From the NCBI GenBank assembly GCA_963809485.1, contig CAWEJX010000008.1, forward strand, positions 480,001 through 544,000: DNA of 64,000 nucleotides, read 5' to 3'. Every line of letters begins with the position of its first letter. The stretch's first letter is position 1. This document shows, piece by piece, positions 2,897-62,220 of the stretch. The translations under genes and the position numbers were made by a program. The notes under the pieces were generated by a model. The model saw only the letters and a list, made by a program, of their open reading frames with translations. It was not told the DNA's origin and ran no database searches. Source of the DNA: an uncultured Acidobacteriota bacterium. Lineage in GTDB: Bacteria; Acidobacteriota; UBA6911.

Positions 2897-3002
2897 TCCT
2901 CGCTCCGTTGCAATACCTAAAACTTATTATTATATTGTCTTCAGAACGGTTCGTCAAGGCTTAACCTTTGATATTCCATATCTTATGGTCTTGGGGAGGC
3001 TG

Positions 3003-3202
3003 TAAGGATTTAAGGATCAGAGGATCAGAGGATCAGAGGATCAGAGGATCAAAGGGAAAAAACACAACCAAATTGCCGATGGGGGTCTATTTAGGTAATT
3101 GCGTCTCCTGTCTCTACCCTCTAATCCTTTGTTCCTTGAATCCTCTATTCCCTGAACCCCTTTGATCCTTTGATCCTTTGATCCTTGACTCCTTTGATCC
3201 TT
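3003..3202. repeat. Inverted pair of 8-mer tandem arrays: (AGAGGATC)n ... (TCCTTTGA)n
   Basis: Left array 3003-3056, right array about 3117-3202; right unit is the reverse complement of the left unit at 7/8 positions; about 60 nt unique spacer. Confidence 0.9.
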
Positions 3203-3235
3203 CTACCCCCCCAACCTTCATCGCCACATACACTA

Positions 3236-5071
3236 TCACTCCCGATTCCCCTGACCCTCCGTAGAGGACTCCTCAGTTTGAAGTCGGAAAAAGCGGCGGT
3301 AGGGGCCATCGTTCGCCATAAGGCTATCGTGGCTCCCGGACTCCACGATTCTGCCCCGGTCAAGCACGAGGATCAGATCGGCGTTGCGTATGGTGGACAG
3401 GCGATGCGCGATTACGAACGTCGTGCGGTCTCGTATAAGATTGGTCAGAGCCTGCTGAACGAGTTTCTCGGATTCCGAATCCAGCGCCGAAGTCGCTTCG
3501 TCCAAAATCAGGATCGGCGCATTTTTAAGAAGGGCGCGCGCGATCGAGATGCGCTGCCGTTCGCCGCCGGAAAGCCTTTGGCCCCTCTCGCCGATCAAGG
3601 TGTCGTACTTCATTGGAAAGCCATTGATGAAATCATCCGCCAGGGCGGCGCGCGCTGCCGCGAAAATATTCTCCTCCGGCGCGTTCACATCCCCGTAAGC
3701 GATGTTGTTCCGAACCGTATCATTGAACAGAAAGGTCTCCTGCGTCACGATGGCGATCTGTTTCCGCAGAGAACTCTGCGTGTATTCGCGGATATCGGTG
3801 CCGTCGATGCGCACAGTACCGGCGGTAGGGTCATAAAAGCGCGGTAATAACCCGACCAGCGTGGTTTTACCCGATCCGCTGCTGCCCACGATCGCAATCA
3901 CCTGGTTCCGTTTGACCTCGAGATGAATGTCTCTCAGGACTTGAGTGGCGCCATTCTGGTCGACGTAATCGAAGGAAACGTTTTGAAATTGGATCGAGCC
4001 GCGAAATCCGTCCAGAGCCCGGGCATCACCCCGGTCCTGGATTTCCTTGTGCGTATCCAGCAATTCCACTATCCGGGACGCTGAAGCAAGAGCCCGTTGT
4101 ATCTGAACATGTATCCGGCTCAGTTTCCGGATCGGGTCGTACATGCGAAAGAGAGCAAACAGCGATCCCCCGAACATCCCCAGCGTCAGGGTCCCTTCCG
4201 CGATGCGCGTGTGGGCATAATACAAAAGCGGAATGAACGCCACCACGCCCAGCAGTTCCATGACAGGGGAATTGACAAAAAGAATGGCGGCGGCTTTCAT
4301 ATTGCTTCGAAACAGCTTGGCTGCGGTTTTCCGGAATCCGTTTTCCTCGTGCTGTTCCATGCCGAACGCCTTGATGATGCGCATTCCCGTAATCGACTGC
4401 TGGAGCTGGTCGTTCAGATCGGCGGCGTCCTCGCGGCCTTTCCGGCTGACGTGCCGTATGCGTTTGCCCATGCCGAGAGTCAACAGGAGAGCCAATGGCG
4501 CGATGAGCAGGGACAGCAGCGCCAGCTTCCAGTCGATGCAGAAGACCAGGATAATCAGGGAAGCCAGCAGAACGGTCTCCCGGAACAATTCCGCCAGGAT
4601 GGTTGAAACCGCCTCCTGAACCTGCTCGACATCGCCGCTCATCCTGGACATGAGACGGCCGGTCGAGTTCAGGGAGAAAAAACCCATGGATTGGCCCAGG
4701 ACGTGGTGGAAAAGCTCATTCCGCAGATCCATCACGACGCTTTGGCCGACATGGCTCATGGAATAATTGGAGTAATACAGGCATACGCCCTTGAGGAGGG
4801 TCAGAATCAGGAGCGCAAGCGAAAGCTGGGTAATCACGCTGCCGGGCATCAGCGAGAGAATAAGCGAGACATACCTTTCAACGAAACTCAGCCTCTGGCC
4901 GGCCGGGCCGGCTTCAATCGATCCTGTGGCAAGAACCTTATCAAAAAGCGGGATTGACAGGGTTGTAGTAGTGGATTCAAAAATGCCGACAAAAAGAAGG
5001 AGCAGCAGAGAAAGAGCCAGTCCGCCCCGGTGAGGCCGTATGAAAGGAAAGAGTCTTCGAAAATCGGTCAT
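3236..5071 (-). CDS. msbA: MsbA-like ABC exporter (TMD-NBD fusion)
   Basis: Hydrophobic TM region, Walker A GSSGSGKT, signature LSGGERQR, DEATSALD, IAHRLST. Confidence 0.75.
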   Translation of the reverse strand: MTDFRRLFPFIRPHRGGLALSLLLLLFVGIFESTTTTLSIPLFDKVLATGSIEAGPAGQRLSFVERYVSLILSLMPGSVITQLSLALLILTLLKGVCLYYSNYSMSHVGQSVVMDLRNELFHHVLGQSMGFFSLNSTGRLMSRMSGDVEQVQEAVSTILAELFRETVLLASLIILVFCIDWKLALLSLLIAPLALLLTLGMGKRIRHVSRKGREDAADLNDQLQQSITGMRIIKAFGMEQHEENGFRKTAAKLFRSNMKAAAILFVNSPVMELLGVVAFIPLLYYAHTRIAEGTLTLGMFGGSLFALFRMYDPIRKLSRIHVQIQRALASASRIVELLDTHKEIQDRGDARALDGFRGSIQFQNVSFDYVDQNGATQVLRDIHLEVKRNQVIAIVGSSGSGKTTLVGLLPRFYDPTAGTVRIDGTDIREYTQSSLRKQIAIVTQETFLFNDTVRNNIAYGDVNAPEENIFAAARAALADDFINGFPMKYDTLIGERGQRLSGGERQRISIARALLKNAPILILDEATSALDSESEKLVQQALTNLIRDRTTFVIAHRLSTIRNADLILVLDRGRIVESGSHDSLMANDGPYRRFFRLQTEESSTEGQGNRE

Positions 5072-5142
5072 GGAACCGCCAGCTCCGCACCCCGAATTAG
5101 CTTCTACCGCGATCCAGAGACTAGCATGCCCCTAACAAAGCT

Positions 5143-5229
5143 GCCACGAATTTCACGAATTGCTGCTTTGTTTTTCATTCGTGGAATTCGTGGCCTTTGT
5201 TTGATATCGAATTTCGAATCTCGAATCTT
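5143..5229. repeat. GCCACGAATTTCACGAAT...ATTCGTGGAATTCGTGGC hairpin plus (TCGAAT.)x3 7-mer array
   Basis: Read directly; abuts the MITE right end at 5230. Confidence 0.8.
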
Positions 5230-5463
5230 GTCAGGTACCTCCGGCAAAGCCGGAGGCTTGAAAGATTGGAACCGCTCAAAGCGGTTGGAGGAGTTACGCC
5301 GGTCTTGAACGCTGACTTACGCGGGCAAAAGCCGATGCGGCGCTTCCGACCCTCGCCGAACAAATCGGCGTTTGTCAGCGCTTTTATCAGCGTTTCTCAG
5401 CGTTTCAAAATACGGAGCTGTCAAACTCTTTGAGTCTCCCGGCAGAGCCGGGGGTTTACCAAT
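5230..5463 (-). mobile_element. IS200/IS605-type non-autonomous element (MITE/PATE), copy 1
   Basis: Left end ATTGGTAAACCCCCGGCTCTGCCGGGAGACTC hairpin; right end AACCGCTTTGAGCGGTT and GCCTCCGGCTTTGCCGGAGGTACCTGAC hairpins; no ORF; 5 other copies in window. Confidence 0.8.
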
Positions 5464-11112: not shown

Positions 11113-11606
11113 ATTTATGATTTACGAATTACGAATGACGAATTACGAATTTAAACACACGGTGATGATTTCCGGTAAGCTGTTTGTTGTACCGGAAGTC
11201 TATTTTCTTTACGGTGCTCGGGACTGGGGCCTTCATGGGATTCACCCGTTGCGCGCCGGTTTCAGATTGGCAACTCTTATCTAATTCCATTGGTAAACCG
11301 GCTCTGCCGGGAGACTCAAAGAGTTTGACAGCTCCGTAATTTGAAACGCTGACGTACGCTGAAAAAATATAAATTTTTTTCGGCGTGGGTCGGCGTCCGT
11401 TCAGCGTGCGTCGGCGTTCAAGACCGGCCTAACGCCTCCAACCGCTTTGAGCGGTTCAAATCTTTCAAGCCTCCGGCTTTGCCGAGGTACCTGACTGCCA
11501 TTGAAGATTGCATTCTGACTATCGACTGAATAAAAAATGATCGCAAAACATCACCGCGCTTTTTAATTCGTCATTCGTCATTCGTCATTCGTAATTCGCA
11601 ATTCGT
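11113..11606. repeat. Inverted 7-mer arrays (TTACGAA)n ... (ATTCGTC)n enclosing a short IR and MITE copy 2
   Basis: Left array 11113-11151, right array 11565-11606; inner IR CGGTGATG / CATCACCG; right array overlaps the hprK 3' end. Confidence 0.88.
11289..11495 (+). mobile_element. IS200/IS605-type MITE, copy 2 (interior type B)
   Basis: ATTGGTAAA...GGCTCTGCCGGGAGACTC left end and CCTCCGGCTTTGCCGAGGTACCTGAC right end. Confidence 0.8.
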
Positions 11607-18118: not shown

Positions 18119-18263
18119 TTTCAGCGTGCGTCAGCGTTTATCGGCGTGCGTCAGCGTTAAAATATAAGGATGGGCCTCCAGAGTCGGTCTCAAAACGACC
18201 GTCGCGAGATCCTCGCCGGCAGTTATGAGACAGTCTCATGGAGAGCCGTCCTGACTGGAACCC
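18119..18263. repeat. About 145-bp dispersed composite repeat (TCAGCGT 9/11-mer array plus GGTCTCAAAA...TGAGACAG IR), copy 1
   Basis: Aligns by eye over its length with 62221-62363. Confidence 0.8.
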
Positions 18264-22353: not shown

Positions 22354-23078
22354 TTGGTTTTTATGAAGGACGTGAATCCGCTCTTCTTCAGCCGGAGCTG
22401 CATGGCTACCGCATCGGCCCGGGATTTGAAATTTCCTACCTTGACAAGATACAGCTGGCCGGCCGAGCCGGGAGGCTCCACCCTGCAGTCGAACCCCTTG
22501 GCCTTCAGCATGCGTGCCTTGACATCCGACTCGGATTTTTGACGGAAAGCGCCGACCTGCACCGAGTAGCCGATCGGCCCGGCAGCTGCCGCAGCCGGCT
22601 TGGGGGCGGTCCCGGCAGCAGTTTCAATACTTGGCTCATCCACGGTCTTCGCAATGGTTGAAGCGGTGCCTGAAGCCGTTGTTGTTTTCTGTTTGGCGGC
22701 GGCATCCGCTGTGGCGACGGGGGTTCCCTTTTTGGGCGGCGCCGGCATTATTTTTTGGGTGTTGTCGGGCTCCCCTTCTTTCCGGTTTACGGTCTTATAC
22801 CAGTCCAGCGGCTGCTCCTCCGTTCCCTCCTTCGGAGTCTCCGCAACAGGGCTCGAGTCGGCCGGCTGCGTCGCTTGGGCCTGAGTGCTGTCGGAATCCC
22901 CACTGGGCATGGACTCCGCGGCTGCCTGAATTCCTTCCTGGTATCCCTGGCGCTTACCCTCGACGAATCCCACCACAAAAGAGCATCCGAGAATCGCAAC
23001 GAGCAAAACAAACGCGATTATGAGCTTACGATTGTCCAGCACAACTTCTATCCCGGCTTCCGAAGCATTCTCCGCCAT
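22350..23078 (-). CDS. SPOR domain cell-division protein
   Basis: N-terminal TM, low-complexity linker, C-terminal YSVQVGAF...YLVKVGNF SPOR domain. Confidence 0.85.
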   Translation of the reverse strand: MAENASEAGIEVVLDNRKLIIAFVLLVAILGCSFVVGFVEGKRQGYQEGIQAAAESMPSGDSDSTQAQATQPADSSPVAETPKEGTEEQPLDWYKTVNRKEGEPDNTQKIMPAPPKKGTPVATADAAAKQKTTTASGTASTIAKTVDEPSIETAAGTAPKPAAAAAGPIGYSVQVGAFRQKSESDVKARMLKAKGFDCRVEPPGSAGQLYLVKVGNFKSRADAVAMQLRLKKSGFTSFIKTN

Positions 23079-23094
23079 CACGACTCTCTCCTCG

Positions 23095-23353
23095 CTGAAC
23101 GTTGAACGTTTGAACGTTAGAACGTTAAACGTTAAAAACAAATCACGTCTTCTGACATGAACGTTTCAATCATCAATCTTTTTTTAAGGTGCAAACCTTG
23201 CAACGTGAAAACGTTTGAACGTTTGAACGTTGAACGTTAAAAACAAATGTGTTTTTCCCAGAATTTGCCGTATCAATGGATACTGCTTTATAAACGTGCA
23301 AACGTTTAAACGTTCTAACGTGCCAACGTTCCAACGTTCTAGCGTTCAACGTC
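23095..23353. repeat. Clusters of (T)GAACGTT / AACGTT(C)(C/A) 7-8-mer arrays
   Basis: Arrays at 23095-23136, 23192-23240 and 23292-23353; the last overlaps the SPFH gene stop. Confidence 0.88.
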
Positions 23354-24100
23354 TTTTTTGGGCACTAACCAGTCTTTTATGATGTCGATGGGCACGGGGA
23401 AAACAACGGTCGTATTCTTCTCCACGCCGATCTCGGTTAATGTTTGCAGATATCGCAGCTGCAGTGCAACAGGTTCTTTATTTATGACGCCGGCCGCCTC
23501 CGCGAGCTTGGCTGCAGCCTGGAATTCGCCATCGGCGTGAATGATTTTTGCGCGCTTCTCGCGCTCCGCCTCAGCCTGCTTGGCCATGGCCCGCTGCATC
23601 ACCTCGGGCAGGTCCACCTGCTTGACCTCGACAAGGCCGACCTTGATACCCCAGGCGTCCGTGTGCTGATCGAGTATTTCCTGAAGCTTGACGTTCAGCT
23701 TCTCCCGGCGGCTCAGAAGGTCATCCAGTTCGACTTCGCCCAACACCGAACGCAGCGTGGTCTGGGCAAGCTGAGAAGTTGCGTACATATAATTCTCAAC
23801 CTCAACAATTGCCCGCGGGGCGTTCATCACACGGAAATAGACGATCGCATTGACCTTCACCGACACGTTGTCGCGTGTGATGATGTCCTGGGGCGGGACT
23901 TCAAGCACGATCGTCCGCAGGCTGACGCGCACCAGCTTGTAGATCGGCCAGAGGACAAATACCAGGCCGGGGCCCATAGCCTTCGGCAGAAGACGGCCCA
24001 GCCGGAACACGACTCCCCTTTCATACTCCCTAAGAATATGGATCGTGCTCCACAGGTACAGCAGAACGATAACAATGCCTACCAGCAGCGTTGATTCCAT
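23339..24100 (-). CDS. Stomatin-like SPFH (slipin) protein
   Basis: [50 protein letters not shown]. Confidence 0.93.
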
Positions 24101-25417: not shown

Positions 25418-25446
25418 GGCGTTTGGTCTTATTGTAGCACGATGGA

Positions 25447-25580
25447 GGTTAAACGTTGAACGTTTGAACGTTTTAACGTTGAACGTTTGCACGTTTGAAC
25501 GCTAAAAACTATACAAGTTATGGGGATCTCTGTGATCCTCGCGTTTGCTTTTAACGTTTAACGTTTAACGTTCAACGTTT
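25447..25580. repeat. Inverted AACGTT 7-8-mer arrays
   Basis: 25447-25505 (TGAACGTT type) and 25550-25580 (AACGTTT/C type); overlaps the lipA stop. Confidence 0.88.
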
Positions 25581-26431: not shown

Positions 26432-26502
26432 TGCTTCCTCTCAAAAATATTACACTACACCCATTCAATCCCGATTTTTAGCCAATCTCTCCTCCCCCAT
26501 CT

Positions 26503-26554
26503 TTTAACGTTCAACGTTCAAACGTTAGAACGTTTAAACGTTCCAACGTTCAAC
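26503..26554. repeat. AACGTT 7-8-mer array
   Basis: tttaacgttcaacgttcaaacgttagaacgtttaaacgttccaacgttcaacg between divergent lipA and SNF2 genes. Confidence 0.85.
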
Positions 26555-26588
26555 GCAACAACGAGTATTCCCGAAATGCCATCGTAAA

Positions 26589-29963: not shown

Positions 29964-30986
29964 ATGCACAGAAATTGTATTGTTCCACCCTACATGCTGC
30001 GCGCTATCCCCCGGAACGGGGACTCCAGGCAGCAGGCGCTGGCCTGGTCCACGTTGACAGATTCCGAGCAGTTTCGCGGTGAACGCCGGGTGATGACGGT
30101 CCTGGCTCCGCTGGCGGCGACCTCGCCGGGGCGCAAGCGCCGCACGGTTTATGATGCGCGCCACAAATACGACCTGCCCGGCAGGCTGGTCCGATCGGAA
30201 GGCGATCCCAAATCAAGGGACCCGCGGGTCAACGAAGCCTATGACGGCGCCGGGTTCACCTATGACATGTTCAAAAAGGCGTTTTCCCGCAATTCGATTG
30301 ACGACCGCGGCATGCGCATCGATTCGACGGTCCATTACGGGGATTGCTACGACAACGCTTTCTGGAACGGCCGGCAGATGGTCTACGGCGACGGGGACGG
30401 CCGGATTTTCGCCCCGTTCACCAAAGCCCTCGATGTCATCGGCCACGAATTGACCCACGGCATCACACAATGCGAAGCCGGGCTGAATTACCGCGGCCAG
30501 CCGGGCGCCTTGAACGAATCGTTTTCGGACGTCTTCGGAAGCCTGGTCAAACAGTACAGGCGACGCCAGACCGCCAAGGAAGCCGACTGGCTGATCGGCG
30601 CGGACCTGTTTCTTCCGGGCGTAAAGGCCAAAGCCATCCGGTCCATGAGAGAGCCCGGCACGGCCTACAACGATCCCGTGCTGGGCAAGGATCCTCAGCC
30701 CGGCCACATGGACGATTACATTGTCACCGAAGAGGACAACGGCGGCGTGCACCTGAACTCCGGAATCCCCAACCGGGCTTTCTACGAGCTGGCGATGCGC
30801 CTGAAAGGGTACGCCTGGGAGAAAGCGGGCGCTATCTGGTACCTGACCTTGACCGAAAAATTGCGCCCCGGATCGAAATTCCGCGACGCCATGACGATGA
30901 CGCTCACGGCTGCCGCCGAGCTTTACGGCATCAACAGCCGCGAGCAGAAAGCCGTGCGGGAAGCCTGGTCCGAAGTCGGACTATAA
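29964..30986 (+). CDS. Protealysin-like M4 metalloprotease
   Basis: Short propeptide CIVPPYML, NAFWNG, HELTH, GALNESFSD, DNGGVHLNSGIPN; no signal peptide. Confidence 0.93.
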   Translation: MHRNCIVPPYMLRAIPRNGDSRQQALAWSTLTDSEQFRGERRVMTVLAPLAATSPGRKRRTVYDARHKYDLPGRLVRSEGDPKSRDPRVNEAYDGAGFTYDMFKKAFSRNSIDDRGMRIDSTVHYGDCYDNAFWNGRQMVYGDGDGRIFAPFTKALDVIGHELTHGITQCEAGLNYRGQPGALNESFSDVFGSLVKQYRRRQTAKEADWLIGADLFLPGVKAKAIRSMREPGTAYNDPVLGKDPQPGHMDDYIVTEEDNGGVHLNSGIPNRAFYELAMRLKGYAWEKAGAIWYLTLTEKLRPGSKFRDAMTMTLTAAAELYGINSREQKAVREAWSEVGL

Positions 30987-31453
30987 AAAACGCCACGGAT
31001 TCCACGGATAAATCCTGTTTTTTATTTCTATTGGTAAACCCACGGCTCTGCCGGGGGACTCATAGAGTTTGACAGCTCCGTATTTTGAAACGCTGAGATA
31101 CGCTGACAAAAGCGCTGACAAACGCCGATTTGTTCGGCGAGGGTCGGCGAGCAAAAGCCGATGAGGCGCTTCCGATGGAGTTTTCTGCGGCGGCACTGTG
31201 GCAAACGCCCGGTTTCTCATACCCTTCATCTCCTTGCCGCACGGCGCTTGCCACAGTGCCGCCGCAGAAAACTGTCCAGCGCAGAGCGCTGGCCCCTGCG
31301 GGGATCGGAAGCGCCTCATCGGCTTTTGCCCGCGTAAGTCAGCGTTCAAGACCGGCGTAACTCCTCCAACCGCTTTGAGCGGTTCAAATCTATCAAGCCT
31401 CCGGCTTTGCCGGAGGTACCTGACATTTAATCTGTGGAATCCGTGGCGTTTTT
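30985..31453. repeat. AAAAAACGCCACGGATTCCACGGAT ... ATCTGTGGAATCCGTGGCGTTTTT inverted repeat enclosing nested elements
   Basis: Arms 30985-31009 and 31430-31453; both convergent genes stop at the arm edges. Confidence 0.9.
31030..31424 (+). mobile_element. IS200/IS605-type MITE, copy 3, carrying two further nested IR elements
   Basis: Same ends as copies 1, 2 and 5; perfect inner IRs 31151-31176/31304-31329 and 31180-31204/31248-31272. Confidence 0.85.
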
Positions 31454-32474
31454 ATACCTGTTCGAGGATTGGTTCCATTTTGGCTGGATCAAAGCCTGCA
31501 GTAATAGTGCGGATGTTGTCCGCTATCGGTTCCGGTTTCGCTTCTCCCCCGGGATCTATCACCATGAGGCACATGCCAAGGCGTGGATTCATCGCGTTGA
31601 AGTGCCGCCGGACATCATCCAGCGCGGTTTGACTTTCGAACTCATCCGCGGTCAGAAACTCGATCATCATATCGGGGCTTACGAGCTTGCGGTCGTAGAT
31701 TTCGGCAACGATCGGAATTTCATCCGGCGTGGGCAGGAAAGTCAGAAGCATCACGCGCGAATCGAGGCCATAGGACGTGTCCCCGGTCTTCTTCTTCGGC
31801 CGGACCGGAGGCGTGAAGCGAACGACGAATGTGTCTATCTCTCTTGCCGGCCCCATTTTAACCGTCACATATTTGTCCACTTTGCGCGAATGGAGCACGA
31901 ACTCAGGAATGCGCAGGGTCGGATGATGGGCCTGGCGTCCAAAGGCGATTTCCTTCAGATCGGTCAGATACGGCTTGTAATCATCGTCCAGGTCGACGAA
32001 ATAGCCCTTGTCCGGATCGAGTAGCCTGATGAAAGCCAGCGCCGCCCACATTTCGTACCCCAGCCGATACAGGTCCGCTGCAGCCGTCCGTATATCGTTC
32101 GCGCCGGCCGTTTCAAACTCCTCAAACGTCGTCTTGCCCTGCAGCAGGTCAAAAAGCCTGTTGTACATCACCCGGATCAGCCCCTCCCCGGGGCCGTGCA
32201 GAAAGCTGTAGAGATCGACGGGGACGGCGATGCGCTCGATGTTGAGAGTCTCAATGATTTCCCTCTCGACCCGGATGTAGTTGTCGGAGAGCGTCTGCAC
32301 ATCCACAGGAAGCGAGGCATACTGCTCCTTGACAAAAGCCCTGCGCACATCGTCAAAGCGCCGGTAAAATTCCCCCCGTAGCTCTTGTGGTATAGAGATT
32401 TCGCTTTTATTTATGATTATTTCCGGATGATTCTTAATAAAATTATTTAACGAATCAATCTCTAGTCGCATCAT
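31452..32474 (-). CDS. Hypothetical protein
   Basis: 340-aa ORF with protein-like composition; no motif recognised. Confidence 0.7.
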   Translation of the reverse strand: MMRLEIDSLNNFIKNHPEIIINKSEISIPQELRGEFYRRFDDVRRAFVKEQYASLPVDVQTLSDNYIRVEREIIETLNIERIAVPVDLYSFLHGPGEGLIRVMYNRLFDLLQGKTTFEEFETAGANDIRTAAADLYRLGYEMWAALAFIRLLDPDKGYFVDLDDDYKPYLTDLKEIAFGRQAHHPTLRIPEFVLHSRKVDKYVTVKMGPAREIDTFVVRFTPPVRPKKKTGDTSYGLDSRVMLLTFLPTPDEIPIVAEIYDRKLVSPDMMIEFLTADEFESQTALDDVRRHFNAMNPRLGMCLMVIDPGGEAKPEPIADNIRTITAGFDPAKMEPILEQV

Positions 32475-32498: not shown

Positions 32499-32596
32499 AC
32501 GTGGAACGTGGAAAGTGGAACGTGAAACGCGCTACCTTCTACCTTCTACCTTCCACATGAAACGTGCCAACGTTCAACGTTCAAACGTTCAACGTC
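32499..32596. repeat. (CGTGGAA)n / (TACCTTC)n arrays followed by an AACGTT array
   Basis: Read directly; CGTGGAA array recurs at 62143-62166. Confidence 0.8.
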
Positions 32597-33581: not shown

Positions 33582-33635
33582 AAAAGGGGACAGTCACCAG
33601 TGTCCCAACGGGGACACTGGTGACTGTCCCCTTTT
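33582..33635. repeat. Perfect 25-bp-arm palindrome (REP-like)
   Basis: AAAAGGGGACAGTCACCAGTGTCCC-aacg-GGGACACTGGTGACTGTCCCCTTTT between divergent genes. Confidence 0.9.
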
Positions 33636-35375: not shown

Positions 35376-36088
35376 CCGATCAAAAAACCATCGACACCGT
35401 GGTGAAAGCTCTCAGGGCCAACAATTTCAAGCCCGTCGAATATGTGGAAAAAGCCAAGGACGCCGTTCCCCTGATCCTGGATATGATTCCGGCCGACGCC
35501 AGCATCGAGATGGCGGGCTCCGTGTCCATCTCGCAGCTCGGCCTCCTGGACATGCTCAGGCAGCGCGGAAACAAGGGCCTGGATTTTCCCAAGCCCGGAG
35601 AGTCCATGCTTGATTTAAGCAAGCCGCGCAAGGATGTCCTGCTCGTCAGCACGAACGCGGTCACCATGGACGGGAAGCTGGTCAACACCGACGGCATGGG
35701 AAACCGCGTAACCGGGATGGTCTGGGGAGTGAAAAAAGTCATCCTGCTGGTTGGGGCCAATAAGATCGTGAGAGACGTGAATGAAGCTATGGACCGCGTT
35801 CAAAACACGATTTCGCCCTACCACGCCAAGCACATCGGGCTCAACACTCCCTGCGCCTTGACGGAGGCCTGCAGCGACTGCGACTCGCCCTTCCGCATCT
35901 GCAACATCACGACCATCATCACCAAGAAGCCGCCCGCAGTCGATTTCGCCATCGTCCTCGCAGGGGAGGACCTCGGATTGGGATGGGATCCTGACTGGCC
36001 GGAAGAGCGCATCGAAAAGATCAAGGCGGCGTATCAGACAGAAATGGAAAAGTTCCGGGCGTCCATGCCCCCGCCTCCGAGAAGATAA
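35372..36088 (+). CDS. LUD (lactate utilisation) domain protein
   Basis: STNAVTMDGKLVNTDGMGNRV, GANKIV, PC...CSDCDSPFRICN; ATGA overlap with upstream gene. Confidence 0.85.
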   Translation: MTDQKTIDTVVKALRANNFKPVEYVEKAKDAVPLILDMIPADASIEMAGSVSISQLGLLDMLRQRGNKGLDFPKPGESMLDLSKPRKDVLLVSTNAVTMDGKLVNTDGMGNRVTGMVWGVKKVILLVGANKIVRDVNEAMDRVQNTISPYHAKHIGLNTPCALTEACSDCDSPFRICNITTIITKKPPAVDFAIVLAGEDLGLGWDPDWPEERIEKIKAAYQTEMEKFRASMPPPPRR

Positions 36089-36160
36089 AAAAACGCCACG
36101 GATTTGGCGAAGCAATACTCGTTTTATGAATATTTTTTGGCAGTGTAATCCGTGGCGTTA
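36087..36160. repeat. AACGCCACGGAT...AATCCGTGGCGTT hairpin between convergent genes
   Basis: Same family as 30985, 42878 and 63491. Confidence 0.85.
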
Positions 36161-36814
36161 TTATTTTCGCGAGGAGAAAGATCCCAGGTCGATGAGGCCG
36201 TTCAGCACGAACTGGACCGCGATCGCCGTGAGGACAAGTCCCATCAGTCGCATCATGATGCGTATGCCCGTTTCTCCCAGGTACCTGCGCACCTGGTTGG
36301 CTCCCGCAAGAATGTAATAGGAAGCCAGCGCCGTAATCGCGACCGCCGAAAGCACGGGGATAACCTGCCACCAGTTCCTCGATTGTCCCATCAGCACCAT
36401 AACGGTGGACATGGCGCCGGGACCGGCCAGCATCGGCACGCCCATGGGAGTCACGCCGACTTCATCTTTCTGTGCTCCCTCCAACCGCTCCTCTGTCACC
36501 TCCTGGGTTCCCGACCGGCGGGCCTGGAGCATATCGTAAGCGACGACAAACAATACGAGGCCGCCGGCAATTTTGAAGGCGGGAAGCGTGATGCCGAACA
36601 GTTTAAATATCAAGCCACCGGCAAGCGAAAAAGCGGCAAGAACCACGAAGCAGGTCCACGCGGCCTGTCGCGCCGCCCTGCGGCGTTTTTCCTCGCTGTC
36701 CTCGGCCGTCATGACGAGGAACGACGGGATCGCGGCCAGGGGGTCCACGATAAAGAATATGGAGCTCAAGGCCACAAATGAGAATTGGAGAATTTCTTTA
36801 ACCTCTGCGTTCAT
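36161..36814 (-). CDS. MarC family inner membrane protein
   Basis: IVDPL, FGITLPAFKIAGG, PMGVPMLAGPG, RLMGLVLTAIAVQF. Confidence 0.92.
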   Translation of the reverse strand: MNAEVKEILQFSFVALSSIFFIVDPLAAIPSFLVMTAEDSEEKRRRAARQAAWTCFVVLAAFSLAGGLIFKLFGITLPAFKIAGGLVLFVVAYDMLQARRSGTQEVTEERLEGAQKDEVGVTPMGVPMLAGPGAMSTVMVLMGQSRNWWQVIPVLSAVAITALASYYILAGANQVRRYLGETGIRIMMRLMGLVLTAIAVQFVLNGLIDLGSFSSRK

Positions 36815-42072: not shown

Positions 42073-42396
42073 TCAACGAATCTGTGCAGCGCGCCGCGTC
42101 CAAGCGAGAATAGCTTCTCGAAGCGCCGCATGCAGACTCAATCCCTTTTCCTTAGCCCGTTCTTCCAACAATGCCCAAATAGCTGGAGGGAAACGAACCG
42201 ACCGTGGAACCGTTCCGCCGGTTTCAAGCACTTTCTTCGGACGCCCCCGTCCAACTTGAACCGTAATTCCTTCAGCTGAGATCCGTTTCGCGTAGGGATT
42301 TGGCCGCACATGAGCTTTTGAGAAATCAATCTCAGGCATTGCTTGAAGCGATGCCTTTGATGGCTCTCTTTGATGTTTTTTAGCTGCCTTCTTCAT
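42073..42396 (-). CDS. Antitoxin partner of BrnT (BrnA/RHH-like)
   Basis: MPEIDFSKA..PNPYA, GRGRP, C-terminal RSVRFP...ERAKEKGLSLHAALREAI; overlaps the brnT stop. Confidence 0.7.
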   Translation of the reverse strand: MKKAAKKHQREPSKASLQAMPEIDFSKAHVRPNPYAKRISAEGITVQVGRGRPKKVLETGGTVPRSVRFPPAIWALLEERAKEKGLSLHAALREAILAWTRRAAQIR

Positions 42397-42649
42397 ATTG
42401 TTTCCTTTCATGGGCTGTGGCGCGACGAGCGCTAATAATTCGGATATCATGACCGTCAATCTCTATGAAAACAACCAGGAGCACCCGTTGTTTGATGGAC
42501 TCGCCGATCAATATTGCGCGGTCGCTGTGAATATCATCTGTTACCATCAGCGCTAATGGATCCCAAAAGACTGTAACCGCTTCTTCGAAGGCGATGCAAT
42601 GTTTGCGCAAGTTAGCGATGGCCTTGTTCGGATCCCATGTAAAATGCAT
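42380..42649 (-). CDS. brnT: BrnT family toxin
   Basis: FTWDPNKAIANLRKH.IAFEEA..VF.DP, IRIISARRAT.HER..YEE. Confidence 0.92.
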   Translation of the reverse strand: MHFTWDPNKAIANLRKHCIAFEEAVTVFWDPLALMVTDDIHSDRAILIGESIKQRVLLVVFIEIDGHDIRIISARRATAHERKQYEEGS

Positions 42650-42742: not shown

Positions 42743-42820
42743 TGGTACGCCTGGCAGGGTTCGAACCTGCGACCTTCGGTTCCGGAGACCGACGCTCTAG
42801 TCCAGCTGAGCTACAGGCGC
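42743..42820 (-). tRNA. tRNA-Arg(CCG)
   Basis: GCGCCTG TA GCTC AGCTGGACTA GAGC G TCGGT CT-CCG-GA ACCGA AGGTC GCAGG TTCGAAC CCTGC CAGGCGT A CCA folds as a cloverleaf. Confidence 0.97.
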
Positions 42821-42877: not shown

Positions 42878-42937
42878 AAAAAACGCCACGGACATCACGG
42901 ATTAAAAAATGTATAATCCGTTCAATCCGTGGCGTTT
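42878..42937. repeat. AAAAAACGCCACGGA...AATCCGTGGCGTTTT hairpin
   Basis: Same family as 30985, 36087 and 63491; 9-nt internal duplication on each arm. Confidence 0.85.
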
Positions 42938-42958
42938 TGCTTATGGGGAGGAGTATTT

Positions 42959-43693: not shown

Positions 43694-43749
43694 ATTTTCC
43701 CAATAGAAAGCCGCGGATTCCGGAAAATACAAAACATCCTGCTAATTAC

Positions 43750-43984
43750 ATTGGAAAAACCCCCGGCTCTGCCGGGGGACTCAGAGAGTTTGACAGCTCC
43801 GTATTTTGAAACGCTGACGTACGCTGACATGACGCCGACGTACGCTGAAAAAATATATAAATTTTTTTCGGCGTGGGTTGGCGTCCGTTCAGCGTGCGTC
43901 GGCGATCAAGACCGGCGTAACTAGTCCAACCGCTTTGAGCGGTTCAAATCTTTCAAGCCTCCGGCTTTGCCGGAGGCACCTGAT
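43750..43984 (+). mobile_element. IS200/IS605-type MITE, copy 5 (interior type B), inside an AGCCGCGGAT/ATCCGCGGCT IR
   Basis: Both ends present; wrapper IR at 43709-43718 and 44008-44017. Confidence 0.82.
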
Positions 43985-44215
43985 ATCGGCAAATTTCGGT
44001 TTTTGGCATCCGCGGCTCCCTTTCATTCTCTCCTAAGATCCCTCTAATCAGACTCCGATAGACAAAAATCCCTGTTTGGCTTAGGATGCTTGCACGGCAT
44101 AATAAATTTTTTGTGCCCTACCCCCCTTGAAATACAAAAGCAAAGATGCGCGAAGACTGCAATGGCACTGTCGTCGATTTGAGCCGAACACGCACAATAT
44201 GGAGGCAATTGTTCT

Positions 44216-47482: not shown

Positions 47483-47554
47483 TACAGGCAGCTACGGCTG
47501 CAAACCGGCCAGGAAACGCCGGAAATTCCGCGAACGATAGTATTGCTACATCAC

Positions 47555-47710
47555 ATTGGTAAATCCCCGGCTCTGCCGGGAGACCCAAAGAGTTTGACAG
47601 TTCCGTATTTTGAAACGCTGAGAAACGCTGATAAAAGCGCTGACAAACGCCGATTTGTTCGGCGAGGGTCGGCGAGCAAAAGCCGATGAGGCGCTTCCGA
47701 TGGCGTTTTC
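47555..47710 (+). mobile_element. IS200/IS605-type MITE, copy 6 (right half missing)
   Basis: Left end and interior match copy 3 up to GCGCTTCCGATGG. Confidence 0.75.
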
Positions 47711-47714
47711 CTTT

Positions 47715-48046
47715 TCACCCGCAGCAGGATCGAGGCCTCGCATTTTGGACATCACATCCAGGCGCATACGTTCCGCACCCGGAGCCATACACCGAAAATG
47801 GACGGCATGACCGCGCTGGAGATAGCTCGCGTCGAATGGAGGGACTCCGATTGGCTCAGCCTTCAGGTCTGCCAGGGCCTTTTGCAGACAGGCCAGGTTT
47901 CGTGGATCGGCCAGGATCGCCAGATCGATGTCGCGGCTAAATTCGGCTACGCCGTATAATACGCATGCCTGGCCTCCCATAAGGAGGGCATATACCCGGT
48001 GCCTTCGGATCGAAGAAAGGACTTTGCGTATCGGATTCGGGATCAA
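47715..48046 (-). pseudogene. Nucleotidyltransferase-like gene truncated by MITE copy 6
   Basis: LLMGGQACVLYG...SRDIDL (GG-x-DxD pol-beta type motif); ORF tail reads into MITE sequence. Confidence 0.65.
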
Positions 48047-49580: not shown

Positions 49581-49665
49581 TCGGATTAACGAATCCAATA
49601 AATAATTCAGCGTTCGTCGGCGTTTCCCTCAGCGTGAGTCAGCGTTACCAAAGCTGATGAATCCC
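49581..49665. repeat. About 85-bp dispersed repeat with TCAGCGTT 9-mer units, copy 1
   Basis: AATTCAGCGTTCGTCGGCGTTTCCCTCAGCGTGAGTCAGCGTTA identical at 56906-56949. Confidence 0.85.
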
Positions 49666-49712: not shown

Positions 49713-50527
49713 GTTAGCGACCGAAACCAACCCTACAAGGTCTACGACTATACTCCGACCCTGAGTCGCGACGATCCTGATGCCTACATGAAAGACTTTC
49801 ACGGCTATCTGCAGGTGGATGCCTATTCCGGCTACGACGAGCTATTCCGGGACCGGAACCGTGACATCCCTGAGGTCGCCCTTGGGGCTCCTGCGAGCCG
49901 GCATTATTTTGAAGCGCAATTCTCGGACCTGATGCATTTGACCGTGATATTGGCCCACATACGTCTGCCGTATAACGTCGCGCGAGAAGCCCGAACCATG
50001 GGACTGACCGGCGAGGCCAGAAAAGCCCTGCGCCAGGCCAAATCCATACCAATACTTGAGGACATTGGGGTCCGATATCCAGCGTGAACAGATCGCGGTC
50101 TTACCCAAAAGTCCTGAGGGCATGGCTATCTCATACACGTTATCAAACTGGTACGCACTGGTGCGCTACTGCAACAATGGCAACCTGGAGATCGATAACC
50201 TTGGTTCCGAGCTCAGCCTGCGGGGTGTCGCAGCGGGGAGAAAAAACTGGAATTTTTACGGAAGCGATAGGGGAGGAAGAACTACCGCGGTATTTGCGAG
50301 TATCACAGCCATAGGCAAACGCCTGCGCATGGATCCATTTCAATGCCTGCGCGACGTCTTCCAAAGTATCAGCACATATCCTCAAAACGATCTCGAAGAG
50401 TTACAGCCCGACAGGTGGAGAGCCGCACGGGCGGTCGCAAACACGCATTCCTAATCCAGCACAGTTTGCGGGTTGCCAATTCCACGAAACGCAGACAATG
50501 CCAGGTTTGTGTTCACCGAGCGCATAC
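49713..50527 (+). mobile_element. Degraded IS66 family element (TnpC C-terminal remnant)
   Basis: GYLQVDAYSGY; AISYTLSNW..L.RY..NG.LEIDN...E..LR.VA.GRKNW.F.GS..GG; frameshift about 50060; right end GTGTTCACCGAGCGCATAC. Confidence 0.85.
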
Positions 50528-50586: not shown

Positions 50587-53500
50587 CTAATGTGTGATGT
50601 ATTCTACATTTAACTTGGGCGCGCTGCTAGGATTCGTATCGAAGGGGATTGCTGATCGAAGTCCAGTCCCCGTGATGATGATCGCCAAAGAATTGCCACT
50701 TACCCAACCAGGTCGATTCACAATTTCCTGAATGATCAAAGATATATCGGGAGTTTTCTCTCTGGGACCCGTTTCTCCTTTGGCTGTCCATGCTTCAGGA
50801 GACCAAGGAATGGCTGTTGAAGTCCTTGTTCTGGAAGATATATTCCTTGCAGGAGAGGCAAAGACAAGTGCGTTATCTGTGTTTTGACCCTCAATTATGA
50901 GAGATGTAACCGCAGAGGCTTTTCCTACTGCACTGAATTGTATATAGGCATTGACGATCGTTGCTCCAGTGGGAATATTCACGCCGTTGAACCGAATGCC
51001 TATGGTTTGGTTACCCGTTGCCTTCTGAACCATTTCAAGATCTGTGCTTGTGAGATTCATTACCCCACTATAACTCTCTTCTGCGTCATCTGCGCGGGCT
51101 GCAACAGGTATGAGCAAGACTCGGACATCAGGTGCATTGATTGCAAAAGTCTGGGCATTCGAGGTCCCCCCTCCCGGGACAGGATTGAATACGGTTACGC
51201 TCGCGGTCTCTGCGCTGGCGATGTCCGAGGCAGAGACCGAGGCCGTCAGCTGCGTCCCACTTACATAGGTCGTCGCCCGGTCTGCTCCATTCCAGCGCAC
51301 TACGGAACTCGAGATGAAGCTGCTGCCGTTGACGGTGAGAGCAAAGGCCGGACCGCCGGCTGTGGCCGAAGCGGGGCTCAGGCTCGTCGTTGCGGGCACC
51401 GGATTGTCGGCAGCAGTTGATCGTGAAGGTCTGCGCGTTCGAGGTTCCGCCGCCCGGGACAGGATTGAATACGGTCACACTCGCCGCTCCCAACACCGGC
51501 TATGTCAGAGGCCAGGATCGAGGCCGTAAGCTGCGTCGCATTCACATAGGCCGTCGTCCGGTCCGCTCCATTCCAGCGCACTATCGAACCGGAGATGAAA
51601 TTCGCTGCCGTTAACCGTAATCGTAAAGGCTGGACCGCCAGCCGTGGCCGAAGCGGGGCTCAGGCTCGTCGTTGCGGGCACCGGATTGTCGAAAGCGTTG
51701 ATCGTGAAGGTCTGCGCGTTCGAGGTCCCGCCTCCCGGGGCAGGATTGAATACGGTCACACTCGCCGTTCCCGCACCGGCTATGTCAGAGGCCGGGATCG
51801 AGGCCGTAAGCTGCGTCGCATTCACATAGGCCGTCACCCGGTCCGCTCCATTCCAGCGCACTATCGAACTCGAGATGAAGTTGCTGCCGTTAATTGTGAG
51901 AGTAAAAGCCGGACCCCCAGCTGTGGCCGAAGCGGGGCTCAGGCTCGTCGTTGTCGGGCACCGGATTGTCGGCAGCGTTGAGCGTGAAGGTCTGCGCGTT
52001 CGAGGTTCCGCCGCCCGGGACAGGATTGAATACGGTCACATTCGCCGTTCCCGTGCCGGCTATATCAGAGGCCGGGATCGAGGCCGTAAGCTGCGTCGCA
52101 TTCACATAGGCCGTCACCCGGTCCGCCCCATTCCAGCGCACTATAGAACTCGAGATGAAGTTGCTGCCGTTAATGGTGAGAGTAAAATCTGGGCCGCCGG
52201 CTGTGGCCGAAGCGGGGCTCAGGCTCGTCGTTGCGGGCACTGGATTGTCAGCAGTGTTGATCGTGAAGGTCTGCGCGTTCGAAGTCCCGCCTCCCGGCGT
52301 GGGATTAAAGACTGTCACGCTCGCGGTCCCTGAATTGGCTATGTCAGAGGCAGAGATCGAGGCCGTCAGCTGCGTCGCACTTAAATAGGTCGTAGCCCGG
52401 TCCGCCCCGTTCCAGCGCACTATAGAACTCGAGCTGAAGCTGCTGCCGTTAACGGTAAGAGTAAAATCAGGGCCGCCGGCTGTGGCCGAAGCGGGGCTCA
52501 GGCTCGTCGTCGCGGGCACTGGATTGTCGGCAGCGTTGATCGTGAAGGTCTGTGCGTTCGAAGTCCCGCCTCCCGGCGTGGGATTAAAGACTGTCACGCT
52601 CGCGGTCCCTGAATTGGCTATGTCAGAGGCAGAGATCGAGGCCGTCAGCTGCGTCGCACTCACTAGGTCGTCACCCGGTCCGCTCCGTTCCAGCGCACTA
52701 CAGAACTCGAGATGAAGCTGCTGCCGTTAACGGTGAGAGTAAAAGTCAGACCGCCGGCTGTGGCCGAAGCGGGACTCAGGCTCGTCGTCGCGGGCACCGG
52801 ATTGTCGGCAGCGCTGATCGTAAAGGTCTGCGCGTTCGAGGTCCCCCCTCCCGGCGCGGGATTAAAGACGGTCACGCTCGCAGTCCCTGCACTGGCGATG
52901 TCCGAGGCAGAGATCGAGGCCGTCAGCTGCGTCGCACTCAAATAGGTCGTCGCCCGGTCCGCTCCGTTCCAGCGCACTACAGAACTCGAGGTGAAGCTGC
53001 TGCCGTCGACGGTGAGAGTAAAAGCCAGACCGCCGGCTGTGGCCGAAGCGGGACTCAGACTCGTCGTCGCAGGCACCGGATTGTCGGCAGCGTTGATCGT
53101 GAAGGTCTGTGCGTTCGAAGTCCCGCCTCCCGGGACAGGACTGAATACCGTCACACTCGCGGTCCCTGCACTGGCTATGTCCGAGGCTGGGATCGAGGCC
53201 GTCAGCTGCGTCGCACTCAAACAGGTCGTCGCCCGGTCCGCTCCGTTCCAGCGCACCATGGAAACGGACACAAAACTCGCACCATTAACCGTAAGCGTGA
53301 AGCCTGATCCGCCGGCTGTGGCCGAAGCGGGACTCAGGTTCGTCGTTTCCGGCACCGGATTGTCGGCGGCGTTGATCGTAAAGGTCTGCGCGTTCGAGGT
53401 TCCCCCTCCTGGAGCAGGACTGAATACGGTCACACTCGCGGTCCCTGCTACTTCTATATCCGAAGCCAGGATCACTGCGGTTAATTGCGTCGAAGAATCA

Positions 53501-54918
53501 ACTGTCGTAACTCTATCCGCCCGGTTCCAGCGTACTATTGAGCCAGATACAAAGCCGGTGCCATTAACCACAAGATTGAATGTCGCGTCCCTTGCTGTTG
53601 CCGCTGCGGGACTCAGGCTCGTCGTTGCAGGCACCGGATTGTCGGCAGCGTCGATCATGAATGTCTGTGCGCTTGAGGTCCCGCCTCCCGGGGCAGGATT
53701 AAATACGGTCACATTCGCTGTCCCTGAATTGGCTATGTCAGCTGCAGGAATAGAGGCTGTAAGCTGCGTTGGACTCAAATAGGTCGTTGCCCGGTCCGCT
53801 CCGTTCCATCGAACTACAGAGCTCAAGATGAAGTTGCTGCCGTTGACGGTGAGAGTAAAAGCCGGACCTCCGGCCCTGGCCGAAGCGGGGTTTAGGCTTG
53901 TAGCTGAAGGCATCGGATTGTCGAGCGGGGGAAACGAAATTTCATATAACTTGCCATCATTCTCCAAGGGATTTTGGCCGTTATCAACACCGCGAGCCAC
54001 AATGTAGAGATTCTTCTGTGTGGGATTTTTGCTCGCCGGAGCATAAACCATGCCGCCGCCTGCACCCAATGACACCACGCGGGAAGCATCGATATAGCGG
54101 AGAAGCGTCCCATCAATCGTTGTCTCGGCAATTTTTCTTTTATAGCTCATGACGTATAAGTGACCATTTTCCGAATTGAACGCGATGCCTTCCGGGTCCA
54201 ATATTCCAAGGGCACTCGTATCAAAGTGCGTAACGACATCATCTCCAGCGGGTGGTATTCCGTCGAACACACCATTGAGACCTGGCGAGATGTCATAAAC
54301 TTCGGTGCCCTCACCGTCGGCAATGAGCAAATGACCTCTCGAAGCATCGAAAGTGATATCCTCCGGATCATCACTTCCAAAAGACCTGGTGCTAAAATAC
54401 GTAACAACATCATCTGCCGTGTTGTAGGCTGCATCCTGCCCCGGATTTAGAATGAATACTCTCCCCCAATTGTCGTCCGCAAAAAATAGAAACCTGCTCA
54501 CCGGATCGAAGCTGACGCCCGTCGGCTCATGCGAAAAGGGTATCGTTGTAAGAGTGCCAACCAGCTGACCTGATAATGTCACATCAAACAGGTTGACGCC
54601 CGCAAAGTATGGCGGCATTTCATCAACTTCACTGTCGCATATCAACAGCCTATCGGAATCGGGGATGTAGGTCAGGCCAGCCGGATCAGGGCTTGGTGGG
54701 GAAAAAGCCGAAGTCTCAATGATGCGTTCCAATGTTGCTTGAACAACGGGAGTCTGTGCAGAAACAGGAAGGGCTAATAGGGAACCGTGCATTAGAAATA
54801 TCAAGAGTAAATTCTGGATTATTTTGTTTTTTCTTAAAAACCTGTGATGAGACAAGGCGTCCTCCTGTCTGGCTTGTTTTTTTCGCTCGCTTCCCACGTC
54901 TTCAAGCAGTTTTTGCAT
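50587..54918 (-). CDS. Large secreted protein: N-terminal beta-propeller, 10 IPT/TIG repeats (279 bp each) and a C-terminal beta-sandwich; broken by 5 single-base indels
   Basis: [28 protein letters not shown]...SVVRWNG repeat x10; indels at about 52663, 51953, 51600, 51490, 51412 (net +3, about 1440 aa when repaired). Confidence 0.8.
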
Positions 54919-56880: not shown

Positions 56881-56968
56881 ATCGGATCAACGACCCCTAG
56901 AAAAAATTCAGCGTTCGTCGGCGTTTCCCTCAGCGTGAGTCAGCGTTATCAAAGCTGAGGAATTCCCG
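56881..56968. repeat. About 85-bp dispersed repeat, copy 2
   Basis: Matches 49581-49665. Confidence 0.85.
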
Positions 56969-59619: not shown

Positions 59620-59720
59620 GTAGAGCCATCCTCACCCAATCAACACTAACTGCGCGAAAATCGTATTTTTTAATATTTTTTCAGCGTGCGTCAGCGTTTA
59701 TCGGCGTGCGTCAGCGTTAA
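59620..59720. repeat. Rearranged member of the TCAGCGT composite repeat
   Basis: GAGCCATCCTCACC plus TTTTCAGCGTGCGTCAGCGTTTATCGGCGTGCGTCAGCGTTAA as at 18119 and 62221. Confidence 0.8.
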
Positions 59721-62143: not shown

Positions 62144-62220
62144 GGTGGAACGTGGAACGTGGAACGGACGATTTTGGCTTCCTATAGCCCATTTCCCTGC
62201 CGATATGAATATTTGCAGTT

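Follow-up and report, generated by a model that had tools for sequence, protein, structure and literature searches.

Nested palindromes between two convergent genes of an uncultured Acidobacteriota bacterium: a terminator-like hairpin probably split by a non-autonomous IS200/IS605-type element with palindromic cargo

We analysed a composite of nested palindromes located at about positions 30985-31453 of a 64,000-nucleotide stretch (the window) of contig CAWEJX010000008.1, from an uncultured Acidobacteriota bacterium. The composite lies between two convergent genes, one encoding an M4 (thermolysin-type) peptidase and the other a 340-residue protein without a Pfam family, in a window that is otherwise ordinary chromosome (coaBC, gmk, genes of the phosphotransferase system, rpoN, prfB and others) and whose sole trace of a transposase is an IS66 fragment. 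Five concentric inverted repeats, designated L1 (outermost) to L5 (innermost), are visible, and the coordinates assigned to them in an earlier note on this DNA were recovered from the sequence and an inverted-repeat scan (Table 1). As single-stranded DNA, the region 30980-31460 is predicted to fold into one long rod of -164.8 kcal/mol, compared with a mean of -77.3 +/- 4.5 kcal/mol for 100 shuffled controls, none of which was as low (z = -19.66). The earlier note had read the five repeats as several independent families of non-autonomous elements inserted into one another's hairpins. The locus demonstrably consists of two independent layers, L1 and a miniature inverted-repeat transposable element that forms layer L2 (a MITE), plus the cargo of the latter. 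The composite is an IS200-derived MITE, a known kind of element, with an unusually palindromic and invertible cargo, and the five-family hierarchy is not supported.

The MITE at this locus (c3) is one of six copies in the window (c1 to c6), whose alignment agrees with the boundaries previously given. Its left end (LE) and right end (RE) carry different hairpins that are not inverted copies of each other, and a terminal inverted repeat is absent. When the locus was compared with plasmids by BLAST, only the two MITE ends matched, in 11 records at 83-88% identity from Cyanobacteriota, Thermodesulfobacteriota and Pseudomonadota. In pLBX of Leptolyngbya boryana, the match to LE (85% identity over 47 nucleotides) is located about 60 nucleotides upstream of a tnpA that the record's own annotation assigns to the IS200/IS605 family, and the same two RE hairpins follow the transposase gene of this element (about 2995-3630 of retrieved sequence L003). 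A plasmid of Pseudodesulfovibrio profundus carries a MITE of about 250 bp with the same LE and RE and an unrelated interior (L001, 2803-3053). The RE hairpins are conserved across IS200 elements and MITEs of three phyla. The Pseudodesulfovibrio copy shares part of its sequence with an annotated 'hypothetical protein', and the region around it is dense in transposase genes of the ISL3, IS3, IS1595 and IS1380 types.

The tetranucleotide 5' of the MITE is TTAC in seven of the 12 copies with an intact LE, and TTGC, TTCC, TTCT, ATAC or TTAA in the others. All 12 have T at position 2 and ten have C at position 4, and the ends of open reading frames (ORFs) among the protein-database matches described below fit TTNC. 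No target duplication was seen by eye. GTAA, the complement of TTAC, lies one nucleotide 5' of the foot of the LE hairpin, and an equivalent pairing is not obvious at RE. Transposition of IS200/IS605 elements by the Y1 HUH transposase TnpA proceeds through single-strand excision and insertion 3' of a fixed tetra- or pentanucleotide, and in IS608 the cleavage site pairs with a guide sequence located 5' of the foot of the hairpin (PMC3597680). The designation of L2 as an IS200-type MITE, already used in the earlier note, holds because of the end homology with a tnpA-carrying IS200 element, the differing end hairpins, the TTAC-like flank and the lack of an evident target duplication. In these features, in its lack of coding capacity, and in having both ends alignable with such an element, L2 resembles non-autonomous IS200/IS605 MITEs, also termed palindrome-associated transposable elements (PATEs). 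It differs from them in that tnpA is replaced by a stack of near-perfect palindromes with inversion and deletion isomers.

Two samples of related sequences show where L4 and L5 occur. A single scan of species-representative genomes with a 23-nucleotide pattern from the L4 arm gave at least 13 loci. Among the matches listed, 12 are on contigs of one uncultured Acidobacteriota metagenome-assembled genome (MAG; CAYYTC01...), and none overlaps the window. These 12 loci amount to 92 kb, so that 156 kb were examined together with the window; no genes shared with the window locus were found in the 92 kb when an orthologous empty site was sought. The second sample was obtained with a spurious 122-residue ORF that runs through the composite (30981-31349, minus strand), which was searched against a large protein collection. 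It has 24 matches, several on contigs of 0.15-1.36 Mb and seven named 'hypothetical protein' by their source, and this sample leans towards MITE contexts because the query itself held MITE sequence.

L4 and L5 together form one module of 187 bp. L4 is located inside the MITE at all three window loci that have it, at all 12 listed MAG loci and in every protein-database match that could be assessed, and none of these assessable matches places L4 or L5 in another context. At least 14 of the 24 matches span the module from the right to the left L4 arm with MITE-derived sequence on both sides. L5 arms are present only in c3 and the MAG loci L005, L013 and L015, and partially in L010; in the window and the listed loci they always lie within L4. 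The earlier note had named arms confined to this locus as refuting it; L4 and L5 arms do recur elsewhere, among the listed loci only inside the MITE. A MITE of the terminal inverted repeat (TIR) type would be expected to have terminal repeats, to occur in many unrelated contexts and to have a parent insertion sequence (IS) with the same repeats. L4 has the repeats (30-nucleotide arms, 97% complementary), but none of the 15 DNA loci, counting the listed ones, is outside the IS200-type MITE, and searches of plasmids and phages gave no such parent. The L4 module has no match in plasmids at E values up to 1, the region 30985-31453, which includes the module, has none in phages, and no ORF flanked by L4 arms is found in the window or the loci. 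Since full composites recur elsewhere with unrelated flanks (L005, L013 and L015), the composite is copied as a unit, as the earlier note had proposed.

Some candidates were set aside. L016, in a Limisphaerales MAG, is a lone 23-nucleotide match in coding-like sequence with neither a partner arm nor a MITE, and was taken as a chance match. By eye, L4 and L5 resemble a retron (a1/a2 arms, small hairpins and a long hairpin), but a reverse transcriptase is lacking in the vicinity and Rfam gives no match. At gathering thresholds Rfam reports only a tRNA in the window; under relaxed settings, the matches in 30900-31550 were confined to generic microRNA models of long hairpins, whose scores fell far short of gathering level and which we regard as meaningless.

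Table 1. Features of the composite locus, further copies of its components in the window, and L4-bearing loci of the related MAG (L-numbers).
Feature	Position or locus	Strand	Remarks and basis
M4 (thermolysin-type) peptidase gene	29964-30986	+	TAA stop overlapped by L1 left arm
L1 arms	30986-31012 / 31427-31453		27 nt, 93% complementary; inverted-repeat scan
Rest of L1 loop, left side	31013-31029		ends in TTCT, directly 5' of MITE
L2, MITE copy c3, long form	31030-31424	+	395 bp; alignment of six window copies
LE subterminal hairpin CCCACGGCTCTGCCGGGGG	31039-31057	+	sequence
Left half of MITE core palindrome	31085-31146	+	ACGCTGA/ACGCCGA units about 10-11 nt apart; contains L3 left arm
L4 arms	31147-31176 / 31304-31333		30 nt, 97% complementary, perfect over 26; inverted-repeat scan
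L5 arms	31179-31209 / 31243-31273		31 nt, 97% complementary, perfect over 25; inverted-repeat scan
L5 loop	31210-31242		33 nt; both orientations among public copies
Small hairpins CCAGCGCAGAGCGCTGG and CCCCTGCGGGG inside L4	31276-31303		CCCCTGCGGGG is the landing site of element Y in L004
Right half of core palindrome	31334-31350	+	L3 right arm TCAGCGTTCAAG
RE hairpins CCGCTTTGAGCGG and CCTCCGGCTTTGCCGGAGG	31370-31416	+	at 31370-31382 and 31398-31416
340-aa ORF without Pfam family	31452-32474	-	stop codon overlapped by L1 right arm
MITE copy c1	5230-5463	-	only L4 right arm kept
MITE copy c2	11289-11495	+	subfamily without L4
MITE copy c4	40733-~40918	-	no L4; LE truncated (5'-truncated)
MITE copy c5	43750-43984	+	subfamily without L4; within L1-like hairpin
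Hairpin around c5	GCCGCGGAT 43707-43718 / ATCCGCGGC 44008-44020		L1-like
MITE copy c6	47555-47701	+	truncated: LE, core, L4 left arm, then unrelated DNA
L1 hairpin without MITE	36087-36164		fills gap exactly between two convergent stop codons
L1 hairpin without MITE	42878-42938		adjoins region of BrnT-family toxin ORF and tRNA gene
L1 hairpin without MITE	63491-63543		directly past a stop codon
L1-like hairpin, CACGAAT variant	5136-5200		30 nt from MITE copy c1
Full L2(L4(L5)) composite	L005, L013, L015		93-96% identical to c3, unrelated flanks
Only right L4 arm, as in c1	L006, L007, L012		
Internal deletion	L010		L4 left arm into L5 right arm
L4 left arm and L5 lost	L004		another element gained
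Right-hand fragments	L008, L009, L014		
Left end, core and L4 left arm kept, followed by unrelated DNA	L011		as in c6
Repeat-bearing ORFs	50587-51399, 51890-52663, 52663-54918	-	no Pfam match for the two scanned

L3 is no separate layer either, contrary to the earlier note, but belongs to the MITE itself, as the outer portion of its imperfect core palindrome. The L3 words fall in a 25-nucleotide, 84% inverted repeat (31089-31113 / 31322-31346) made of the ACGCYGA repeats of the core, and L3 is kept in the five window copies that retain both sides of the core, while the truncated c6 keeps its left arm only. Arrays of four TC(A/G)GCGT units spaced 10-11 nucleotides apart also lie outside MITEs, at 18121-18151, 49607-49639, 56908-56940, 59681-59711 and 62223-62253, and at least three of them are 50-90 nucleotides upstream of plus-strand ORF starts (18238, 57003 and 59760). 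As the MITE core is built from the same unit, either the MITE may spread binding sites for a putative regulator or the array-bearing promoters may derive from MITE remnants. L011 has two further diverged MITE-like left ends (about 820-900 and 5300-5400), each followed by units of the ACGCYGA type, and the link between left end and array is therefore older than the L4-bearing subfamily.

The shorter MITE copies look like deletion derivatives of the composite. As the earlier note stated and the copy alignment bears out, c4 is without L4, and c1 and c6 keep one L4 arm each. The one-armed copies are joined at a direct repeat matching in 9 of 11 positions, whose units are GCGAGGGTCGG, immediately to the left of L4, and GCGGGGATCGG, immediately within the right L4 arm. 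The crossover falls at three different points (c1; L006; L007 and L012), as would fit deletions that arose repeatedly from an ancestor with the whole composite. L010 has lost an internal segment, and L004 combines a deletion with an insertion. Two L4-less copies seen as proteins, P0017 and P0019, have junctions that differ from that of c4. In c6 and L011, the sequence after the break bears no similarity to the MITE, and when it was aligned as a possible diverged right half of the element, the scores were no better than those of shuffled sequences. The genes beside truncated copies are a 166-residue ORF without a Pfam family and a thiamine pyrophosphate (TPP) enzyme. The former (47546-48046, minus strand) takes its last 50 or so codons from c6, namely from the L4 left arm, core and LE, and its own 3' end seems to have been replaced through the rearrangement.

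The cargo is also found inverted: four predicted proteins make sense only with part of the module turned around. The L5 loop is inverted in P0012, P0016 and P0022, which give an opposite-strand reading of the loop between the neighbouring sequences, and in P0020 the whole interior of L4 is inverted relative to the left end. Such 'flip/flop' inversion between inverted repeats occurs at parvovirus terminal hairpins and in invertible switches. The MITE cargo resembles these systems in that a segment between perfect arms is present in both orientations among copies, but nothing here indicates a dedicated invertase or replication primed by hairpins; for the 30-nucleotide arms, template switching or ordinary recombination would be enough. 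The P0020 ORF runs on from the MITE left end through about 25 residues of flank and ends in ...IPPAKPE, a reading of the right-end hairpin of another MITE, which suggests that this record may hold two MITE copies close together.

Substitutions were counted among the three other full DNA copies. Their L5 arms have none in 186 positions, compared with 44 in 821 elsewhere, and their L4 arms have four, which are uncompensated in the opposite arm. However, in a wider translated set of 15-17 sequences, the window's included, L5 arms vary at 4.5-4.7% and the L4 left arm at 4.8%. Because the L5 arms vary like the L4 left arm in this set, we do not claim selection on L5, and the candidate signal from the three copies was dropped.

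The outermost repeat, L1, has an architecture of an A-tract, a stem of 8-nucleotide CCACGGAT units and a T-tract, with AAAAA and TTTTT at its flanks; the left arm, counted from 30985, comprises the A-tract and two CCACGGAT-type units. The arms overlap the stop codons of the two convergent genes (30984-30986 and 31452-31454). The motif AAACGCCACGGAT, with up to two mismatches, gives paired arms at 30988/31439, 36091/36148, 42881/42925 and 63493/63529, so that the hairpin split by the MITE also exists intact at the three other sites in the window that the earlier note had listed (starting at 36087, 42878 and 63491). The copies at 30985, 36087 and 63491 begin at or within a stop codon. A terminator scan flagged a T-tailed mini-hairpin in each L1 arm and, by sequence, L1 has the G+C-rich stem, the A- and T-tracts and the position directly after stop codons of a bidirectional intrinsic terminator. 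In the 92 kb of the related MAG, AAACGCCACGGAT has four lone matches with two mismatches and no arm pairs. We read L1 as a putative lineage-specific family of bidirectional terminator-like palindromes. At the composite locus, the T-tailed mini-hairpin of each gene would now lie past the MITE, and both convergent transcripts would have to cross about 400 nucleotides of palindrome before terminating. Classical repetitive extragenic palindromes (REPs) are defined by a GTAG or CGTC tetranucleotide tag and an associated RAYT (REP-associated tyrosine transposase) gene (PMC3733652). We rejected this identity for L1, whose arms contain neither tag; a tyrosine transposase was not found in the window.

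Elements other than the MITE were found nested in it at MAG loci. Element X (245 bp, terminal repeat TTTCTGTCGCGAAAT) interrupts the right part of the MITE in L015, where it is flanked by a 7-bp duplication, TAACTAG; the corresponding empty site, GTAACTAGTCC, is uninterrupted in window copy c5. X also adjoins the MITE left end in L010. Element Y (about 320 bp, terminal repeat GAGCATGCGCGTCAA) lies in the loop of the CCCCTGCGGGG hairpin inside L4 in L004, and a free copy is present in L009. Both are TIR-type MITEs unrelated to the host MITE, and neither was found in the window. With X and Y both inside this one MITE, independent elements do become nested in the lineage; how often they lie near MITEs cannot be judged from these loci, which were selected because they contain the MITE. 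X forms the end of two MAG contigs (L008, 6517-6578; L010, 5709-5779), which suggests that X is a high-copy repeat breaking the assembly.

The earlier note had further proposed that the elements insert preferentially into hairpins. The nesting itself is seen, with X and Y in the MITE and the MITE in L1. For 13 MITE copies with both flanks we computed the best duplex between the 50 nucleotides upstream and the 50 downstream, using 2000 random window positions as controls. Only c3 is extreme, with a flanking duplex of -31.1 kcal/mol that 0.05% of controls equal; c5 (4.75%) and c4 (7.15%) are marginal, and the other ten are unremarkable. Two of the five full window copies lie in L1-type hairpins, which occupy 4.7% of the intergenic DNA (P of about 0.02), a value that comes from a tiny sample and depends on a hairpin class set post hoc, with the GCCGCGGAT hairpin of c5 counted after it had been seen. 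The landing site of X is A/T-rich and not a hairpin. A general preference of the MITE for hairpins is weakly supported.

The most probable account of the locus, in our view, is that a terminator-like palindrome was split by an IS200/IS605-type MITE whose cargo, comprising L3, L4 and L5, is copied as a unit and decays by deletion and inversion. One copy of the terminator-like extragenic palindrome L1 would have been tightly placed between the convergent stop codons, and the non-autonomous MITE would have landed in its A/T-rich loop, 3' of the TTAC-like tetranucleotide TTCT. A TnpA of the Y1 HUH type encoded elsewhere would recognize the differing subterminal hairpins of LE and RE, excise one strand as a circle and paste it into single-stranded DNA, leaving no target duplication. 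L3, L4 and L5 would be moved from site to site by the MITE, with L4 and L5 as a double-hairpin module in one piece; this module may have arisen either from a single capture of a TIR-type element or from an inverted duplication inside the MITE. The perfect repeats would make the cargo unstable. Loss of pieces at short direct repeats would give the one-armed, L4-less and truncated copies, and flips between the arms would give the isomers in which the L5 loop or the L4 interior is inverted. We speculate that, in the single-stranded intermediate, the rod-folding cargo brings the two ends, LE and RE, into proximity and thereby favours its own transposition. If it does, this would be a testable design rule for IS200/IS605 vectors.

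Several observations weigh against this account. The 5' flank of c3 itself is TTCT and not TTAC. A tblastn search found no Y1 transposase in the window or the 12 listed MAG loci, and no transposase except the IS66 fragment is present among the 58 window ORFs scanned; with no partner tnpA found in the 156 kb, mobilization of the MITE is a step that we infer. Both c6 and L011 break within 0-2 nucleotides of the inner edge of the L4 left arm, as at an element boundary, which decay of cargo does not explain. GCG flanks L4 on either side in c3 and is present once at the corresponding site of the L4-less c4, a pattern that fits a 3-bp target duplication and a microhomology deletion equally well. The genome matches listed do not include the window's own genome, and L4 or L5 copies outside the MITE could exist beyond those listed; the protein-database query, holding MITE sequence, biases that sample towards MITE contexts. 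The inversion isomers are read from predicted protein sequences rather than from DNA.

Two further accounts have L4 begin as an element in its own right. In one, a TIR-type element (L4, with L5 perhaps an earlier guest) entered the MITE core, lost its mobility and was thereafter spread only as cargo by a mechanistically unrelated Y1 transposase, with X and Y as newer guests; hairpin-rich MITEs would then be mutual landing pads, and the nested hairpins and flip isomers would shape the single-stranded intermediate. We judge this joint reading unlikely; if true, cut-and-paste elements would hitch-hike on peel-and-paste elements. The other is the proposal of the earlier note that L4 and L5 are independent families, each inserted into the hairpin of the next outer layer in a general and continuing process. 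The near-perfect terminal repeats of about 30 bp and the 187-bp length of L4 are typical of a TIR-type MITE. The GCG flanks of c3 and c4, the two truncated copies that end at the inner edge of an L4 arm, the nesting of X with its 7-bp duplication and of Y in the CCCCTGCGGGG loop with a free copy elsewhere, and the position of c3 and, less clearly, c5 in loops of L1-type hairpins all speak for it. However, L4 is outside the MITE at none of 15 DNA loci (three in the window and 12 listed in the MAG) and in none of the assessable protein matches. L5 is never seen without L4 or outside it, and L4 is without L5 only through microhomology deletions (L010 and L004). The module lacks plasmid matches and the region phage matches, ten of the 13 MITE copies are outside flanking hairpins, and X landed in an A/T-rich site. 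On this evidence a general, continuing nesting of independent families is distinctly improbable.

The cargo might alternatively be a selected functional unit, either the L4/L5 module or the whole, whether as structured RNA, as an array bound by protein or as a barrier to transcription, with the MITE merely its distributor. The unsubstituted L5 arms of the three other full DNA copies would fit such a role. So would the ACGCYGA arrays, which also stand outside MITEs upstream of genes and look like putative regulator-binding sites, and the placement of the element where two convergent transcripts would have to traverse it. We nevertheless consider this highly improbable: the L5 arms vary like the L4 left arm in the wider translated set, arm substitutions are uncompensated, deletion derivatives without L5 are common, and Rfam has no family at threshold and only generic microRNA hairpin models below it. 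Palindromes and repeats are error-prone in assembly, and the MAG contigs of L008 and L010 end inside X, so that a palindrome created by mis-joined reads was also considered. Its probability is negligible, as three contigs of an independent Acidobacteriota assembly carry the composite at 93-96% identity with different flanks, and it underlies at least 14 predicted proteins of other records, several on the long contigs mentioned above.

Mobile elements in extragenic palindromes have been described previously. REPs are targets of IS elements at convergent gene ends and have been argued to be safe landing places (Tobes and Pareja 2006, PMC1525189). The REP-targeting families named in that study are IS3, IS110, IS4, IS256 and IS5, and IS200 appears once in one of its tables (1 of 25). 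The composite resembles REPs and bacterial interspersed mosaic elements (BIMEs) as targets in that a mobile element lies in an extragenic palindrome at convergent gene ends. It differs in its guest, an IS200-type MITE, in the weakness of the preference and in the lack of a GTAG or CGTC tag in L1. REP dimers are also nested in long palindromes and, in two species, all outer palindromes found contained the inner repeat (Di Nocera et al., PMC3733652). That arrangement shares with ours a palindrome within a palindrome and the same ambiguity as for L4; ours has more than two levels and is carried by a MITE with IS200 ends. For Acidobacteria, the same study reports families with long TIRs that are linked to tyrosine transposases (PMC3733652). 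The earlier note's remark that it knew of no description of such a hierarchy was thus too strong, with nested REP dimers and REPs as IS targets both in print. Open-access text yielded no account of this MITE, nor of bacterial MITEs stacked on several levels; the papers retrieved on nested MITEs dealt mostly with plants and animals.

The locus provides a clean case for telling true nesting of mobile elements from carried cargo. The IS200-type MITE that it adds is abundant in an acidobacterial lineage and has counterparts with matching ends in three phyla, and its palindromic cargo is readily deleted and inverted. Elements of this kind cause breaks in metagenome assemblies, give rise to spurious ORFs (24 in public protein sets) and split a shared terminator of convergent genes, and they may spread putative regulator-binding arrays.

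Other repeats are present in the window. Tandem 8-nucleotide arrays (AACGTTNN; GAGGATCA; GTGGAAC) are intergenic at 23077-23355, 25431-25580, 26485-26567 and 32569-32589, with more at 2996-3051 and 62145-62165; the L1 arms have the same 8-nucleotide periodicity. Near the L1 hairpin at 42878, an ORF for a BrnT-family toxin of a type II toxin-antitoxin pair (42380-42649, minus strand) lies beside a tRNA gene (42746-42820, minus strand). A hairpin with a perfect 20-bp stem at 33586-33631 begins GGGGACAG and fits the GGGGWSAS motif, which is reported in terminal repeats flanking tyrosine-transposase (TIRYT) genes (PMC3733652); the window holds no TIRYT gene for it. The IS66-family transposase fragment (50056-50454, plus strand) covers only the C-terminal 70 residues of the Pfam model. 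About ten tandem repeats of 279-280 nucleotides, each encoding 93 residues, extend over 51114-53927 across three consecutive minus-strand ORFs, and the region 50587-54918 may be a large repeat protein, broken or mis-assembled.

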